From: Escherichia coli
GTDB taxonomy: Bacteria; Pseudomonadota; Gammaproteobacteria; Enterobacterales; Enterobacteriaceae
Length of the DNA: 64,000 bases
Strand: one strand, 5' to 3'
Assembly (NCBI RefSeq): GCF_003019035.1
Contig: NZ_CP027447.1
Shown here one piece after another: positions 1,239-9,405 of this stretch (position 1 is the first letter of the stretch; every line of letters starts with the position of its first letter). The notes beneath the pieces were generated by a model. The model had not been told where the DNA came from. It saw only the letters and a list, made by a program, of their open reading frames with translations, and did no database searches. Made by a program: the position numbers and the translations under genes.

Positions 1239-2879
1239 ATGGCTATCCACAACCGTGCAGGCCAACCTGCACAACAGAGTGATTTGATTAACGTCGCCCA
1301 ACTGACGGCGCAATATTATGTACTGAAACCAGAAGCAGGGAATGCGGAGCACGCGGTGAAATTCGGTACTTCCGGTCACCGTGGCAGTGCAGCGCGCCAC
1401 AGCTTTAACGAGCCGCATATTCTGGCGATCGCTCAGGCAATTGCTGAAGAACGTGCGAAAAACGGCATCACTGGCCCTTGCTATGTGGGTAAAGATACTC
1501 ACGCCCTGTCCGAACCTGCGTTCATTTCCGTTCTGGAAGTGCTGGCAGCGAACGGCGTTGATGTTATTGTGCAGGAAAACAATGGCTTCACTCCGACGCC
1601 TGCCGTTTCCAATGCCATCCTGGTTCACAATAAAAAAGGTGGCCCACTGGCAGACGGTATCGTGATTACACCGTCCCATAACCCGCCGGAAGATGGTGGT
1701 ATCAAGTACAATCCGCCAAATGGTGGCCCGGCTGATACCAACGTCACTAAAGTGGTGGAAGATCGTGCCAACGCACTGCTGGCCGATGGCCTGAAAGGCG
1801 TGAAGCGTATCTCCCTCGACGAAGCGATGGCATCCGGTCATGTGAAAGAGCAGGATCTGGTGCAGCCGTTTGTGGAAGGTCTGGCCGATATCGTTGATAT
1901 GGCGGCGATTCAGAAAGCGGGCCTGACGCTGGGCGTTGATCCGCTGGGCGGTTCCGGTATCGAATACTGGAAGCGTATTGGCGAGTATTACAACCTTAAC
2001 CTGACCATCGTTAACGATCAGGTCGATCAAACCTTCCGCTTTATGCACCTCGATAAAGACGGCGCGATCCGTATGGACTGCTCCTCCGAGTGTGCGATGG
2101 CGGGTCTGCTGGCACTGCGTGATAAGTTCGATCTGGCGTTTGCTAACGACCCGGATTATGACCGTCACGGTATCGTCACTCCGGCAGGTTTGATGAATCC
2201 GAACCACTACCTGGCGGTGGCGATCAATTACCTGTTCCAGCATCGTCCGCAGTGGGGCAAAGATGTTGCCGTTGGTAAAACGCTGGTTTCTTCTGCGATG
2301 ATCGACCGTGTGGTCAATGATTTGGGCCGCAGGCTGGTGGAAGTGCCGGTAGGCTTCAAATGGTTTGTTGATGGCCTGTTCGACGGCAGCTTCGGCTTTG
2401 GCGGCGAAGAGAGCGCAGGGGCTTCCTTCCTGCGTTTCGACGGCACGCCGTGGTCCACCGATAAAGACGGCATCATTATGTGTCTGCTGGCGGCGGAAAT
2501 CACCGCTGTCACCGGTAAGAATCCGCAGGAACACTACAACGAACTGGCAAAACGCTTTGGTGCGCCGAGCTACAACCGTTTGCAGGCAGCTGCGACTTCC
2601 GCACAAAAAGCGGCGCTGTCTAAGCTGTCTCCGGAAATGGTGAGCGCCAGCACCCTGGCTGGTGACCCGATCACCGCGCGCCTGACGGCAGCACCGGGCA
2701 ACGGTGCTTCTATTGGCGGTCTGAAAGTGATGACTGACAACGGCTGGTTCGCCGCGCGTCCGTCAGGCACAGAAGACGCATACAAAATCTACTGCGAAAG
2801 CTTCCTTGGTGAAGAACATCGCAAGCAGATTGAGAAAGAAGCGGTTGAGATTGTTAGCGAAGTTCTGAAAAACGCGTAA
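1239..2879 (+). CDS. pgm: Phosphoglucomutase (546 aa)
   Basis: ORF 1188..2879; start at MAIHNRAGQ; phosphohexomutase motifs (TSGHRG, GGEESAG); length matches Pgm. Confidence 0.95.
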
Positions 2880-2896
2880 ACACATTTAATAAGAAA

Positions 2897-2926
2897 AAGG
2901 GCGGTCAGAAGATCGCCCTTTTTTAC
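2897..2926 (+). terminator. Rho-independent terminator downstream of pgm
   Basis: GC-rich hairpin aagggcggtcagaagatcgccctt followed by T-run. Confidence 0.75.
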
Positions 2927-2934
2927 TTATGACT

Positions 2935-3033
2935 GCCTGATGCGCTACGCTTATCAGGCTTGGGAAGATGGTGCAATGTATTGAATTTGCTCTATTTTGT
3001 AGGCCGGATAAGGCGTTCACGCCGCATCCGGCA
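2935..3033. repeat. REP/BIME element (two REP palindromes)
   Basis: gcctgatgcgctacgcttatcaggc and aggccggataaggcgttcacgccgcatccggca match the E. coli REP consensus. Confidence 0.8.
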
Positions 3034-3083
3034 TGAACAACGAGCGCTTTGCCAACAAACTGAATAGCTCAAGGGAATTCAAA

Positions 3084-3578
3084 ATGAAGACCAAAAGGAG
3101 TCTGGTCGTCAGAGTGGCATTAATTACCGCCACACTACTGCTGACAGCATGCGCCCAACCTGAACAATCATCATTAGCTGGTGACTGGTTACTGACCCCT
3201 AAAGATAAAACCAGAGGATTAACGGGGAGCATTGCGGTAAATATTGCGCCTTCCCGGTGTAAGACAAATTGCCGTGGCGATAACTTACCTGATAATACCC
3301 GCCGCTGGCAGTTGTCAGGCGGGAACGAAAAAGAACTTACTTATCTTCATGATATGTCAGCACAAGAAAAGACCGGTTTAAATCCTGAATGGCAATGCTA
3401 CACCTCATTTTTTATGGGGATTTGCCAGGGTAAGCCCGGCACTCGACCGATAGTTAATGAGGATTATGTCAGCGAAAGCGGATTTTTTGGCTCGATGATG
3501 CATGTAGGGATTATTGAGTTGCGACGCTGTCAGTCAGAAAATTGCCAGCAAGAATTGAAAGCGATAAACACACATTAA
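3084..3578 (+). CDS. ybfP: Lipoprotein YbfP (164 aa)
   Basis: Start MKTKRSLVVRVALITATLLLTAC has a lipoprotein signal with lipobox LLTAC; position after pgm. Confidence 0.85.
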   Translation: MKTKRSLVVRVALITATLLLTACAQPEQSSLAGDWLLTPKDKTRGLTGSIAVNIAPSRCKTNCRGDNLPDNTRRWQLSGGNEKELTYLHDMSAQEKTGLNPEWQCYTSFFMGICQGKPGTRPIVNEDYVSESGFFGSMMHVGIIELRRCQSENCQQELKAINTH

Positions 3579-3618
3579 AATAGCGAGTCCGGGAATGAAA
3601 CCCGGACCTGAACATGTC

Positions 3619-4269
3619 TTATTGCGTGATTGTTTCTTTCATTTGATACTGCATTTCCCAGAGTTCAGTAAGCGAAATAACTTTTCTTGTTCTTGCTTCT
3701 TCACATTGTACCCATAAGAAAGGGTAGAAAGTGAAGGCTTCCGTTGCCGATAATTTTATTACGTCTTCTTGCCATTGCGGCCAGCGTACATTTTCATAGA
3801 AGGTATCTAAATCACCGGATAATGCCCACTGAAGAAACTCAGAATATCCAACCTCCAGACTTTCCCAATTCAGCGTATCTGGCGCAAAATAATAAACGCA
3901 GCCAGTATCTTCCCCAAGATCGCCACCATTAAGAGCAAAAATTCCCCCTGCGACATCATCGGCGATGGGTAAAGCCCGCACGCTTGCGAATTCAGGGCGT
4001 TGTGTCCAACTTGCTGGATCTCGTGGTAACCGGGGGTGACCAGAGCCTGCTATGCGTAACCAACCGTTATCAATCAGCAGACCTCCGGAGCCATAGACAA
4101 GCGCACCCATCGGTGATTTTGTTGTAACCTGTAATTGATAAAGTGCGGTTTCGGCTAAATCTTTATTAACCGGTAAGAGTTCGGCATGGTTTGTGGCTTC
4201 TTTTAACCAATTCTGGATTATTGGCCAGGCTGAATCTTCAGTATTTACTAACTGACTCACTTCACGCAT
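3619..4269 (-). CDS. Conserved hypothetical protein (YbfG-like), apparently intact 216 aa
   Basis: ORF 3619..4377; preferred start MREVSQ at 4269 preceded by AAGGAG at 9-nt spacing; family assignment from synteny only. Confidence 0.55.
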   Translation of the reverse strand: MREVSQLVNTEDSAWPIIQNWLKEATNHAELLPVNKDLAETALYQLQVTTKSPMGALVYGSGGLLIDNGWLRIAGSGHPRLPRDPASWTQRPEFASVRALPIADDVAGGIFALNGGDLGEDTGCVYYFAPDTLNWESLEVGYSEFLQWALSGDLDTFYENVRWPQWQEDVIKLSATEAFTFYPFLWVQCEEARTRKVISLTELWEMQYQMKETITQ

Positions 4270-4391
4270 CGCTACTTGCTCCTTGTGTGCTACGGTGTCA
4301 TTTATGATGAGGCATTGTATGGGACATTTTTTAAATATTAAGTTCCTTATATTTGAATAAAAAATGACTTTATCCATACATTGCCACTTTT

Positions 4392-4530
4392 TTCAAAGCA
4401 TAAACCGATACCCAATACCGGTTTCAGTAATGAAATGGCGGGGCGGACGAGATCCTGTTCCAGTTTTTGTCGCAAATGCCTCATATAATTACGCAAATAG
4501 TTGCTGTGTTCGACCGCGTTTGGACCCTAC
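4392..4530 (-). pseudogene. Paralogous fragment of the kdpE 3' end (response-regulator C-terminal remnant)
   Basis: About 140 bp roughly 90 percent identical to kdpE 3' end at 8734-8875 (aaagcataaaccgatacccaataccggtttcagtaatgaaatggcgg...); no start codon or receiver domain. Confidence 0.8.
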
Positions 4531-4577
4531 ACCTGCCGGATGCGGCATAAATAACGAACTCTTTGTCAACAAACAGA

Positions 4578-4606
4578 AAGGGCGATCATTCAATCGCCCT
4601 TTTTTA
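4578..4606. terminator. Hairpin terminator between the kdpE fragment and potE, probably bidirectional
   Basis: aagggcgatcattcaatcgccct hairpin followed by T-run on plus strand, A-run on the other side. Confidence 0.65.
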
Positions 4607-4617
4607 TTTCGCTTTTT

Positions 4618-5937
4618 TTAACCGTGTTTATTTTTCAGTTCAAAGCGTGGAGATACCAGACCATACAGTGTCCAACCAAGGAAGGTCACGATGGAACCGT
4701 ACAGCATGGCTTCTTCCCCGGATGAGTACAGCGCATAGAAACTGTACATCGCACCAACAAAGGCAACAAAGTTTGCTACTTTCGCTTTTGACGGTGGCAC
4801 ATTGGCGACCTGCTGAATAATGACTAACGCCGCCATCGACAGAATATACGGGATGATATTGGTCACCACGGCCAGGTTAACCAGCACGTTGAACTGGCTG
4901 TTCAGTGACGGGCTAATGGTCATCAGTGCCAATCCACTCTGAATAATCACAATGGTCAACATTCCCTGAACCGGTGCATCCACTTTGGTTACACGGGAGA
5001 AAATTTTAGGGAAGTAGCCTTCATCAGATGAAGATTTAAACACCTGGGCAATGGTGAACTGCCAGCCAAGCAGTGAACCGCAGCAGGACATCACCATCAG
5101 CGCCATAATGACTTTACCCACTTCCGGCGTGAACATCTGTGCGAAGGCCAGGCCAAATGGTGCCGTTGAATTTGCCAGCTCCATATTGGGCACAATCCCG
5201 GCAATCACGTTGGTGGAGACGATATAAATCACTGCCGCACCTAACGTACCGCCAAGGACTGCTATTGGCACGTTACGTTCCGGGTTTTCCACTACTTCGG
5301 CGTTGGCACAGGCAGACTCCAGACCGAGGAAAGCCCACAACGTCATGGCGATGGAGGAACCTACAGCGCTAAAGAACGGTACATGATGAGGGTTCCATGA
5401 GTTAGCGTACAGCGTCGGGCTAAACCAGAACCAGCCGATAATGCACAGACCGACGACCGGAATAATGACCCCCCACACAGTAATGCTACTGATTTGCCCG
5501 GTAATGCGCGCACCACCAAAGTTAGCCACGGTACAAATCCACAGCACTCCGATGGTCGCAAGACCAATCTGCACTGGCGACAAACTCGCGCCGAGCAGTT
5601 CGGTGCCGTAACCAACCGCCGAAATAGCAATTGCGACGTTAGCAATCAGCAGCGAGACACCGTAGGTGTAGTTCGCCATAAAGTTACCGGATTTACCGAA
5701 AGCATACTCGGCATAACCGCCCATACCACCTGATTTACGGCTGAACATGCCGCATTTTGCGAATGCCCATGCCAGCGCCATTGAGCCTACGGCAGTCACC
5801 AACCAGGAGATTATTGAGATTGTCCCAACTTCGGCAAGCTTTGTCGGCAGCATGATGATACCGGAGCCCATCATGTTGACCATCGTCAGTATGGTTAACT
5901 GAACGACGCCCATTTTGTTCGATTTAGCCTGACTCAT
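4618..5937 (-). CDS. potE: Putrescine-ornithine antiporter PotE (439 aa)
   Basis: ORF with APC-family membrane protein sequence MSQAKSNKMGVVQLTILTMVNMMGSGIIMLP; overlaps speF stop by 4 nt. Confidence 0.95.
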   Translation of the reverse strand: MSQAKSNKMGVVQLTILTMVNMMGSGIIMLPTKLAEVGTISIISWLVTAVGSMALAWAFAKCGMFSRKSGGMGGYAEYAFGKSGNFMANYTYGVSLLIANVAIAISAVGYGTELLGASLSPVQIGLATIGVLWICTVANFGGARITGQISSITVWGVIIPVVGLCIIGWFWFSPTLYANSWNPHHVPFFSAVGSSIAMTLWAFLGLESACANAEVVENPERNVPIAVLGGTLGAAVIYIVSTNVIAGIVPNMELANSTAPFGLAFAQMFTPEVGKVIMALMVMSCCGSLLGWQFTIAQVFKSSSDEGYFPKIFSRVTKVDAPVQGMLTIVIIQSGLALMTISPSLNSQFNVLVNLAVVTNIIPYILSMAALVIIQQVANVPPSKAKVANFVAFVGAMYSFYALYSSGEEAMLYGSIVTFLGWTLYGLVSPRFELKNKHG

Positions 5938-8132
5938 AATTTTTCCCCTTTCAACAGGATGCTTTGCGCATCACGAGGCTTGATGACATAGCACCAAACT
6001 TGCTTACGACCATCATGTTCTTCGATATAGACACCCTGAAGCTCCGGTGCAAAACCTGGCAGCAGGTTGATCCCTTCTTCCAGAGCGCTGAAGTAACGCA
6101 GAACAGCACCACCCCAGATTTCACCCGGAACAACACACAGCACACCCGGAGGATAAGGAAGCGCACCTTCTGCAGCGATACGGCCTTCTGCATCCGGCAG
6201 ACGAACCAGCTCCACTTCACCGCGTAAATAGGCGTAGTTGGCTTCTTGTGGATTCATGCTGACACGTGGGAAGTGTTCCTTACGAAACATCTCTTTTTGC
6301 AGTTGTTTCACGTTGTGACGGGCATACAAATCATGCATTTCCTGACACAACTGACGCAGGGTATAACCGGTGTAGCGCTCTTCATGCTGTTTGTAGATGG
6401 AAGGCAGTACTTCTGATAATGGCGCGTCGGACTCAAGCAGTTTTTCGAAGCGTACCAGCAGAGCAGCAAGTTGCTGAAGTTTGGCCATATCTTCTGCCGG
6501 AGTCAGCAGAAAGAGGATGGAGTTAAGATCGCATTTTTCCGGCACTACGCCATTTTCGCGCAGGAAGTTAGCAAGAATCGTCGCGGGTACACCGAACGCT
6601 TCATATTCGCCGTTACGTGCATCAATACCTGGGGTTGTCAGCAACAGTTTGCACGGATCGACAAAGTATTGATTCTCTGCATAGCCTTCAAAAGAATGCC
6701 AGTGCTCACCTGGTACAAACTGGAAGAAGCGCAGATCAACCGCAATTTGCGCTGTTTCATACGACTGCCAGGGTTTACCATCCACCAGTTCAGGTACGAA
6801 TGGACGAATATGCTGACAGTTATCGAGGATCAGTTTGCGGGCATTAATGCCATTTACCACACAATCCATCCACATATTACGACCGCTGACACCTTCATGC
6901 ATTTTGGCGTTGATATCCAGTGCGGCAAACAGCGGATAGAACGGGCTGGTGGAGGCATGCATCATAAAGGCGTTGTTCATGCGTTTGTGCGGTACATAAC
7001 GCTGTTGCCCTTTGATATGGCTGTCTTTTTTATGGATTTGTGAAGTCTGGGAAAAACCAGCCTGCTGTTTATGCACAGATTGCGTAACCAGAATACCCGG
7101 ATCGTTCTCATTAAGATCCAGCAACAGTGGTGAACAGTCCGCCATCATCGGGATAAACTGCTCATAGCCGACCCATGCGGAGTCAAAGAGGATGTAGTCA
7201 CACAGATGACCAATTTTATCCACCACCTGACGGGCGTTATAAATCGTACCGTCGTAAGTGCCTAGCTGAATAACGGCGAGGCGGAAAGGACGCGCCTCTT
7301 TTGCCCGCTGCGGTGCGACTTCTGTAATCAGTTCGCGCAGGTAATTTTCTTCGAAGCAGTGGGCATCAATACCACCGATAAAGCCATACGGGTTGCGTGC
7401 GGTTTCCAGATAAACTGGTGTTGCGCCAGCCTGTAGCAACGCTCCGTGGTGATTAGATTTATGGTTATTACGGTCAAACAGCACCAGATCCCCCGGTGTT
7501 AACAGGGCGTTTAAAACCACTTTGTTAGAAGATGAAGTGCCATTTAGAACGAAGTATGTTTTATCGGCATTAAACACTTTTGCCGCATGTTGCTGTGCAA
7601 TGCATGGCGCGCCTTCGTGAATCAGCAGATCGCCCATTGCCACATCCGCGTTGCACAAGTCAGCACGGAACAGCGCCTCACCAAAGTATTCCACAAACTG
7701 ATTCCCCGCCGGATGGCGACGGAAAAATTCGCCGCCCTGATGACCGGGGCAATCAAACGCGCTGTTACCCTGATTGACATAATCGACCAGTGCGCGGAAG
7801 AAGGGCGGGCGCAGTTGAGTTTCATAATGGCTGGCTGCGGTTTCTAACTGACGACCATAAAATTCTCGTCGCGATTCGCAATTCTCAAAGACACCCGAAA
7901 TACGGGGCAAATACTCTGCGGGTACACGTTCTTGATTTTCAGTAGCAATAAATACCGGGATGCCATAACCCGTGGCATCGATTTCATCGAGTTTTCCGCG
8001 TGTAACATCGTTGAGCGATAAAACTATTGCCGCCACATCGATATTACTGTTTTCATTAATATAGATACATTCTCGCTGCGTGGTAAAACAGTCCGGGCAA
8101 GAATCACTAACCGCAATTTTTAATTTTGACAT
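5934..8132 (-). CDS. speF: Inducible ornithine decarboxylase SpeF (732 aa)
   Basis: ORF 5934..8210 with start at MSKLKIAVSDSCPDC; PLP-dependent Orn/Lys/Arg decarboxylase; speF-potE operon. Confidence 0.95.
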   Translation of the reverse strand: MSKLKIAVSDSCPDCFTTQRECIYINENSNIDVAAIVLSLNDVTRGKLDEIDATGYGIPVFIATENQERVPAEYLPRISGVFENCESRREFYGRQLETAASHYETQLRPPFFRALVDYVNQGNSAFDCPGHQGGEFFRRHPAGNQFVEYFGEALFRADLCNADVAMGDLLIHEGAPCIAQQHAAKVFNADKTYFVLNGTSSSNKVVLNALLTPGDLVLFDRNNHKSNHHGALLQAGATPVYLETARNPYGFIGGIDAHCFEENYLRELITEVAPQRAKEARPFRLAVIQLGTYDGTIYNARQVVDKIGHLCDYILFDSAWVGYEQFIPMMADCSPLLLDLNENDPGILVTQSVHKQQAGFSQTSQIHKKDSHIKGQQRYVPHKRMNNAFMMHASTSPFYPLFAALDINAKMHEGVSGRNMWMDCVVNGINARKLILDNCQHIRPFVPELVDGKPWQSYETAQIAVDLRFFQFVPGEHWHSFEGYAENQYFVDPCKLLLTTPGIDARNGEYEAFGVPATILANFLRENGVVPEKCDLNSILFLLTPAEDMAKLQQLAALLVRFEKLLESDAPLSEVLPSIYKQHEERYTGYTLRQLCQEMHDLYARHNVKQLQKEMFRKEHFPRVSMNPQEANYAYLRGEVELVRLPDAEGRIAAEGALPYPPGVLCVVPGEIWGGAVLRYFSALEEGINLLPGFAPELQGVYIEEHDGRKQVWCYVIKPRDAQSILLKGEKL

Positions 8133-8389
8133 TTTCCAACTCTTTATTTTTGGTAATAGCAGGTCCTCAATTTCTCGAATGAGAAATCGATCGTGCCGGA
8201 AAAAAAGCAAAGTTACCCTGCTGATAAATTAATCAGAAGTTTGCTTTTTTCAGAATGCAGAAACCCTTATCAGTCCGGTGGCTGATAATACAAGGGTTAA
8301 CAGAGAATGAGCACTGCGGAATACAGGCATATGCCTGTAATACAGAGAGTCAGGAAGACCTGTACGCTGAAGTGCCCTTAGTCGGTAGA

Positions 8390-8494
8390 CTAACGGGCAT
8401 TGAAGAAGTGAAAGTCGAAGCTATTGCGATGAGCAAACTTCATAATATGAGTTGTCCGCCTTATATGGGGCATAGTGCGGCTGTTATTTTCCAT
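8390..8494 (-). promoter_or_regulatory. speFL: speFL leader ORF encoding the ornithine-sensing arrest peptide (34 aa)
   Basis: Minus-strand translation is exactly MENNSRTMPHIRRTTHIMKFAHRNSFDFHFFNAR, upstream of speF. Confidence 0.85.
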
Positions 8495-8695: not shown

Positions 8696-8727
8696 TAATA
8701 AAAGGCAGGATGTATTAAAATTAATAT

Positions 8728-9405
8728 TCAAAGCATAAACCGATACCCAATACCGGTTTCAGTAATGAAATGGCGGGGGCGAGCGGGATCCTGTTCCAGT
8801 TTTTGTCGCAGATGTCCCATATAAATACGCAAATAATGGCTGTGTTCGACCGCGTTTGGCCCCCACACCTGGTTAAGGAGCTGGCGCTGGGTGAGCACTT
8901 TTCCGGCATTGTTGAGCAGCACCGCCAGCAGGCGAAACTCAATCGGGGTGAGATGCACCTCTTCCTCACCGCGATGGATCACGCGGGCGGCTAAATCGAC
9001 GGTCACATCGGAAAATTTCACCAGCGGATCGGGCGCGGTGGTGGCGGAGTGGCGGCGTAAAGCGACGCGCAGACGGGCCTGCAATTCGCCAATGCCAAAC
9101 GGCTTACTCAGGTAATCATCCGCTCCGGCATCCAGCGCGGCGATTTTGTCGCTCTCTTCGCTGCGTGCGGAAAGCACAATCACCGGCACCGCGCTCCACT
9201 GGCGCAGGTCGCGGATAAACTCAATCCCATCACCATCGGGCAGGCCGAGATCGAGAATAATCAAATCTGGCTTACGGGTTGCCGCTTCCAGCAAGCCGCG
9301 TTGCAGCGTTTCGGCCTCAAAGACGCGCATCCCGTCGCCCTCCAGCGCCGTGCGCAGAAAGCGACGAATAGCCTGTTCATCTTCAACAATCAGAACGTTT
9401 GTCAC
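8728..9405 (-). CDS. kdpE: Response regulator KdpE (225 aa)
   Basis: [23 protein letters not shown] receiver domain plus winged-helix C-terminus; overlaps kdpD stop. Confidence 0.95.
   Translation of the reverse strand: MTNVLIVEDEQAIRRFLRTALEGDGMRVFEAETLQRGLLEAATRKPDLIILDLGLPDGDGIEFIRDLRQWSAVPVIVLSARSEESDKIAALDAGADDYLSKPFGIGELQARLRVALRRHSATTAPDPLVKFSDVTVDLAARVIHRGEEEVHLTPIEFRLLAVLLNNAGKVLTQRQLLNQVWGPNAVEHSHYLRIYMGHLRQKLEQDPARPRHFITETGIGYRFML

Follow-up and report, generated by a model that had tools for sequence, protein, structure and literature searches.

Genes and features of the pgm-kdpE interval

The window is the whole stretch of 64,000 nucleotides of Escherichia coli DNA that was analysed (contig NZ_CP027447.1). 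Its features between pgm and kdpE are collected in Table 1. From pgm they run in the order T1, BIME, ybfP, ybfG, a fragment of kdpE, a 13-nt REP tail, a 32-nt spacer, T2 and potE. The pgm-potE gap is therefore ~1.7 kb in the window; in O157:H7 and ST131 it is 57 bp, with a single bidirectional hairpin serving both genes. An earlier note on this DNA had placed the fragment between ybfP and potE, which is right on the potE side, whereas the immediate neighbor on the left is not ybfP but ybfG (DUF2625). The terminator hairpin that it had seen by potE is present, as a hairpin followed by a T-run at 4575-4604 and adjoining the potE stop at 4618. An 85-codon open reading frame that crosses the fragment (4364-4621, plus strand) does exist; it has no Pfam match and is unannotated in RefSeq, consistent with the suspicion that it is an artefact. 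The 49-aa minus-strand open reading frame likewise has no Pfam match.

Table 1. Features of the window between the end of pgm and the end of kdpE
Feature	Position	Strand	Remarks
T1, terminator hairpin after pgm	2891-2928	+	38 nt, 79% identical to T2
BIME downstream of pgm	2935-3033	+	REP-Z 2935-2959 and inverted REP-Y 2999-3033; sub-threshold REP-derived naRNA4 matches
Left copy of duplicated spacer	3029-3060	+	directly after REP-Y, before ybfP
ybfP (lipoprotein)	3084-3578	+	part of strain-variable insertion
ybfG (DUF2625)	3619-4269	-	immediate neighbor of the fragment; PF10946, E = 1.4e-86; intact
kdpE 3′ remnant (ybfI ortholog)	4392-4535	-	KdpE residues 179-225, TGA stop (complement 4393-4395) and 1 base beyond
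G4 run, G5 in kdpE	4440-4443	-	1-bp deletion giving a frameshift; private to window allele, absent from K-12 allele
In-frame TAG replacing a kdpE Trp codon (GTG TGG to GTG TAG)	4527-4529	-	common to window and K-12 alleles
REP-derived 13-mer TGCCGGATGCGGC fused to inner end of fragment	4534-4546	+	13/13 identical to reverse complement of REP-Y tail 3021-3033
Right copy of duplicated spacer, CGGCATAAATAACGAACTCTTTGTCAACAAAC	4543-4574	+	27/32 identical to 3029-3060
T2, bidirectional terminator-like hairpin just downstream of potE	4572-4609		from hairpin and repeat searches
Segment enclosed by the repeat copies	4618-8494	-	potE 4618-5937, speF 5934-8132, speFL 8390-8494
Intact repeat partner, 3′ end of functional kdpE	8727-8871	-	ORF/CDS 8728-9405, 225 codons, annotated kdpE WP_000186076.1

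The fragment corresponds to the last 47 codons and the stop of kdpE, and forms a direct repeat with the end of the complete gene. A repeat search of the window returned it as two blocks, one of 52 nt at 100% identity (4392-4443 and 8727-8778) and one of 96 nt at 89% (4440-4535 and 8776-8871). The start-to-start distance of the copies is 4335 nt in one block and 4336 nt in the other, so there is a 1-nt register shift between the blocks, where the fragment has GGGG and kdpE has GGGGG. Mean column identity in a MAFFT alignment of the two copies is 89%. As a lone query the 144-nt fragment matched kdpE with an E value of ~1e-45 in 28 Gb of E. coli genomes, which excludes chance as the origin of the similarity. 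These three results bear out the original observation of ~140 bp that are ~90% identical to the kdpE 3′ end. The limits then proposed, 4392-4530 and 8734-8875, had the location right and were a few bases off; the true ones are those in Table 1. It had also been seen correctly that the fragment is oriented like kdpE, both copies being on the minus strand, and that it is without start codon or receiver domain, only residues 179-225 of the 225-residue KdpE being represented.

The fragment is the known pseudogene ybfI

The element is already known in K-12, where RefSeq (NC_000913.3) annotates pseudogene ybfI (b4636), which occupies 716721-716870 and is flanked by pseudogene ybfG and by potE. The window fragment likewise has ybfG (DUF2625) and potE as its neighbors and shares their strand. 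Window positions 4300-4640 are 100% identical to isolate ECCNB12-2, in which PGAP calls a pseudogene at 4393-4526, described as winged-helix, frameshifted and with the N-terminus missing. A literature search on ybfI, b4636 and ybfG/ybfP found nothing about the element in E. coli.

The window and K-12 copies agree in position, orientation, both boundaries, the in-frame TAG and two missense changes. Both start at the kdpE stop and end at the junction of CACCTG with CCGGATGCGGC; because the boundaries are identical on both sides, the two copies descend from one event. They are different alleles nonetheless, with 94.4% identity across the surrounding 341 nt and 11 differences in 143 nt, among them the 1-bp deletion of the window copy. 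The neighboring ybfG also differs, being intact in the window strain and a pseudogene in K-12.

All kdpE genes compared, including those of Salmonella and Citrobacter, keep TGG at the site of the TAG. The two missense changes, His to Asn and Ile to Asn, are common to both alleles and derived relative to the kdpE of E. coli, Salmonella, C. koseri and C. freundii. Since every kdpE compared holds the ancestral state, the TAG and the two missense changes postdate the cutting-off of the fragment. Read in the kdpE frame, the K-12 allele gives QM*GLNAIEHSNYLRNYMGHLRQKLEQDPARPRHFITETGIGYRFML*, and the window allele gives QV*GPNAVEHSNYLRNYMRHLRQKLEQD and is frameshifted from there on. Divergence between the two alleles is 7.7% in the fragment, 5.1% in ybfP, 3.4% in ybfG and 1.6% in the region upstream of ybfG. 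The fragment thus drifts faster than the neighboring segments of the islet, and is among the fastest-diverging parts of the locus.

These are the properties of a gene remnant: start codon, receiver domain and most of the winged-helix domain are absent, disabling mutations are present, and constraint is relaxed. The receiver domain and complete Trans_reg_C domain in one open reading frame that would mark a functional KdpE paralog of the OmpR/PhoB type were not found. With its derived disabling changes set aside, the fragment is a mosaic that falls inside the allelic diversity of E. coli kdpE. We considered a single extant kdpE allele as its source and rejected this, as the synonymous states match no allele specifically. 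Judged by its sequence, the fragment is derived from an E. coli-type kdpE and not from a distant donor.

Over the larger region (window 2800-4800), divergence from K-12 reaches 16.7% in the T1-BIME-spacer stretch, and even the 3′ end of potE differs by 5.6%. The window is phylogroup F-like, and its locus is identical to those of IAI39 and ST648-type strains. The divergence between the window and K-12 loci points to haplotypes that would be old and deeply diverged.

Haplotypes of the interval

The fragment was found in 1831 of 5426 complete E. coli genomes (~34%), always together with ybfP-ybfG; it forms the right-hand edge of the ybfP-ybfG insertion (1.5 kb), and is absent from the O157:H7 and ST131 loci, where pgm abuts potE. 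We sorted the same 5426 genomes into five classes by searches with real and hypothetical junctions. The majority (class A) has pgm, a terminator, potE, speF, speFL and kdpE in this order. Class B is the window arrangement, with ~34% of genomes. Class C has pgm-ybfP-ybfG-kdpE without speF-potE, in three genomes (CUWW10, GF4-3 and KL53). Class D is pgm-T1-BIME-spacer-ybfP-BIME-kdpE, with a TAG stop, in 247 genomes. Class E, pgm-T1-BIME-kdpE, includes O145:H28 and others and has at most ~107 genomes (D and E together at most 354). A sixth type, A*, is pgm-T1-BIME-spacer-T2-potE-speF-speFL-kdpE; it was predicted first, and then found in strain N96 and one other genome. The BIME of the window recurs in classes D, E and A*. 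The spacer is single-copy in N96, which is without the ybfP-ybfG insertion. N96 is not a simple deletion derivative of class B, because its right side is class-A-like in SpeFL protein and in spacing.

Of the outgroups, two (Salmonella and C. koseri) show the order kdpE-speFL-speF-potE-(x)-pgm, and in the third, C. freundii, kdpE adjoins pgm. In ~59% of E. coli genomes, as also in Salmonella and C. koseri, speF-potE adjoins kdpE with no repeat present. No second copy of the kdpE end was found in Salmonella, C. koseri, C. freundii or the E. coli haplotypes A, A*, D and E.

Several further observations concern the variability of the interval. The inducible ornithine decarboxylase gene, speF, is missing from 387 of the 5426 complete genomes (~7%), judged by the lack of any match covering at least 80% of the query; these include the O145:H28 lineage, with kdpE 162 bp from pgm, and the 247 genomes with pgm-ybfP-kdpE. 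In the O145:H28-type haplotype (L021 3170-3190) a stretch of 10 nt, TTTAACCGCC, separates the REP-Y tail from the TAG stop of kdpE and is similar to the sequence around the potE stop, TTTAACCG; it may be what is left of an earlier potE end, on an 8-nt match that could be chance. In the majority haplotype, the pgm/potE terminator resembles a hybrid with the stem-loop of T1 and the tail of T2 (L003 4741-4798; N96, L023 5580-5803). This suggests an origin from two terminators, both of which N96 still has, through loss of the BIME and spacer that lay between them, the change presumably having run in that direction. The 5′ region of ybfG is a repeated target of insertion sequences (window 3619-4392; L002 5194-5891; L016 7161-7858), with IS1A in an MG1655 derivative and in EH10-18-47, IS1B in KL53 and IS903B in 1218KP.

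Probable origin by illegitimate recombination

The earlier suggestion that the fragment is a recombination scar is supported on two counts. Its structure is that of a truncated, disabled gene end, with a REP tail and a duplicated spacer joined directly to its inner edge; the TG at the REP-tail junction is shared with kdpE, a 2-nt microhomology, and K-12 has the same junction. Furthermore, it occurs only in the haplotype that joins ybfP-ybfG to speF-potE, and both parental-type haplotypes are extant in E. coli.

We infer that class B is the product of a single illegitimate (unequal) exchange between two haplotypes. One parent would have carried pgm-T1-BIME-spacer-ybfP-ybfG directly beside kdpE, and would have been cut 144 nt before the end of kdpE. 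The other, of A* type (pgm-T1-BIME-spacer-T2-potE-speF-speFL-kdpE), would have been cut in the tail of REP-Y. Joining of kdpE to the REP tail in the pgm-potE spacer, by the TG microhomology, would yield a product with ybfP-ybfG, the severed end of kdpE and a further copy of REP tail and spacer, followed by the speF-potE-kdpE segment in full. In this way one exchange explains the truncation of the gene end, the presence of the REP tail, the doubling of the spacer and the extra terminator.

Haplotypes of both parental types survive: D and E, which lack speF-potE and have kdpE beside a BIME or ybfP, and A* in N96 and its one companion. Against D or E as the donor itself, the fragment keeps the TGA stop followed by A, like the kdpE of speF-potE-bearing strains, whereas D and E have TAG followed by G. 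The exact parent, with ybfG beside an old, independently diverged kdpE, was not found among the genomes searched. Two class C genomes were considered for this role and rejected: the kdpE-kdpD of both CUWW10 and KL53 is 100% identical to that of MG1655, and KL53 moreover has an IS1-associated deletion with a normal downstream flank of kdpE. A cluster look-up of KdpE aimed at E. albertii and E. fergusonii returned names from E. coli, Salmonella and Citrobacter only. The outgroups compared (Salmonella, C. koseri and C. freundii) all lie outside Escherichia, and the direction of some steps is therefore inferred.

We also looked for a foreign donor with ybfG beside kdpE, and identified no enterobacterial one. 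A scan for YbfG across 100,044 species, each represented by one genome, using peptide patterns that find close relatives only, returned just an E. coli-like MAG contig and two Paenibacillus loci at 42-43% identity; the nearest homologs outside E. coli in a protein search have 50-56% identity. The MAG contig (JAIJJM010000630.1; 1.9 kb, labelled Collinsella sp.) is 94.7% identical to the ybfP-ybfG-ybfI region; its most likely source is contamination of the bin by E. coli. Three Logan contigs (from SRR27475578, SRR27475714 and SRR9087304) carry a ybfP-ybfG islet that is 86-88% identical to the window at the nucleotide level; they are ~1 kb long and stop ~40-50 nt into a kdpE-like end, too short to show whether kdpE is whole.

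A different history would begin with a tandem duplication in one A* genome, by illegitimate exchange between sister strands, of the interval that starts in the REP-Y tail and reaches 144 nt into kdpE, after which the first potE-speF-speFL was replaced by ybfP-ybfG. The fragment would still be a dead scar, and only its history would differ. The junction, with the kdpE end followed by REP tail, spacer and T2, is exactly that expected for a duplication join, and the ancestor of the fragment within E. coli kdpE diversity, with the TGA and A of speF-potE-bearing strains, suits this course as well. It requires, however, one more precise replacement, with a right edge that coincides exactly with the stop codon of kdpE. 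Haplotype D, itself without speF-potE, also has the spacer-ybfP junction, which is more simply taken as pre-existing on a separate haplotype; nor was any duplication intermediate seen in the 5426 genomes. We regard this course as unlikely, though it deserves some weight. Our confidence in the main reading is high: window 4392-4535 is in all likelihood a non-functional remnant of kdpE, orthologous to ybfI, and the scar of an old illegitimate recombination.

Probable recombination between ybfI and kdpE

The class C genomes CUWW10 and GF4-3 have the fragment-type flank downstream of the stop and the kdpE-type coding sequence, which places a crossover within the first 27-47 nt of the repeat. These structures fit a deletion of speFL-speF-potE that would have occurred by homologous crossover between ybfI and kdpE and left kdpE intact. 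In CUWW10 the deletion is recent, because its kdpE-kdpD is identical to that of MG1655 at 1946 of 1946 positions; in GF4-3 a recent deletion and an old parental ybfG-kdpE arrangement look alike and cannot be told apart. In KL53 these genes were lost differently, through a deletion associated with IS1.

The one demonstrable consequence of the fragment would thus be structural, in that a 144-bp direct repeat can permit precise excision of speFL-speF-potE with kdpE rebuilt. Its part as a recombination partner is an incidental consequence of the scar, with no evidence of evolved function. One could go further and see in the repeat a recurrent switch, by which lineages shed the acid-inducible speFL-speF-potE, and regain it through a circular product or transfer, always restoring kdpE. 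We consider this improbable; if true, it would contribute to the presence/absence polymorphism of speF in ~7% of genomes.

No sign of a regulatory function

The earlier note had also raised an antisense or decoy RNA with complementarity to kdpE mRNA, a proposal that found no support. The fragment runs in the direction of kdpE, potE and ybfG; because it is in sense orientation, read-through RNA from potE cannot pair with kdpE mRNA. A consensus scan of 4100-4750 found no promoter-like site on the plus strand, and two on the minus strand, a number at the level expected by chance. Rfam gave no match on 4392-4535 and only sub-threshold REP-derived matches nearby. Compared with shuffled sequence, neither strand of the fragment has excess RNA structure (z = 0.56 and 0.07). 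Hence, of the marks of a cis-antisense or trans-acting sRNA, neither a promoter on the target-complementary strand with a defined terminator (by consensus scan) nor conserved sequence or structure or a described RNA family (by Rfam, fold z and the fast divergence) was found. The fragment cannot titrate KdpE either, because it encodes the end of the DNA-binding domain and not a KdpE operator.

More broadly, the fragment could be a functional element that acts on kdpE expression as such an RNA or as a short peptide. It does offer 144 nt at 90% identity to kdpE mRNA sequence; the U-tract of the potE terminator is weak on the minus strand, so that read-through RNA could cover the fragment; and the K-12 allele keeps a 30-codon in-frame stretch from an internal ATG. 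Against these stand, besides the orientation and the negative searches, a divergence that exceeds that of the flanks, the frameshift of the window allele that destroys the K-12 reading frame, and the absence of the fragment from ~66% of E. coli genomes. We hold such a function to be very improbable: as gene or as RNA, the fragment appears to do nothing, showing no sign of function.

Significance of the locus

Alone the element matters little, as an ordinary annotated pseudogene with no sign of function. Its use is that it dates and locates the rearrangement behind the K-12-type arrangement, in an interval between pgm and kdpE that has at least five structural haplotypes in E. coli. The repeat explains the clean loss of the speF-potE acid-response module in rare strains. 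For annotation, neither the short "winged helix" open reading frame nor the 85-codon antisense one should be called a gene. As the pseudogene was already known, the only mildly new results are the reconstructed rearrangement and the survey of haplotypes at the locus.

Comparison with known systems

Two kinds of known structure resemble the one described here. The first is the attL/attR pair that an integrative element leaves at tRNA and tmRNA genes, where the inserted DNA likewise lies between direct repeats of a gene 3′ end and the working copy is that which is continuous with the remainder of the gene. If a mobile speF-potE islet had entered the 3′ end of kdpE by site-specific integration, bringing a replacement gene end, this would explain why repeats of a gene end bracket a 4.3-kb block of accessory-looking genes that rare strains lose precisely, with kdpE restored, but we give this almost no credence, as only potE, speF and speFL lie between the repeats, and the block has neither an integrase nor a recombinase gene inside it or next to it; the kdpE-speFL-speF-potE adjacency exists without the repeat in Salmonella, C. 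koseri and most E. coli; one repeat end is a REP tail and duplicated spacer with no att core; and the crossovers of the deletion strains lie at different places, as for homologous recombination. The repeat is 144 nt long at 90% identity, unlike the short exact core of att sites, and it is tied to ybfP-ybfG rather than found wherever speF-potE is present.

The closer likeness is to remnants of bacterial gene ends at the junctions of illegitimate or homology-facilitated illegitimate recombination and at the joins of tandem duplications, which are often at REP or BIME sequences. By analogy with these, the ybfI fragment would be a truncated gene end fused through a 2-nt microhomology to a REP tail, with the adjacent spacer duplicated; the difference is that here the parents are reconstructed from extant haplotypes, rather than the event having been observed.
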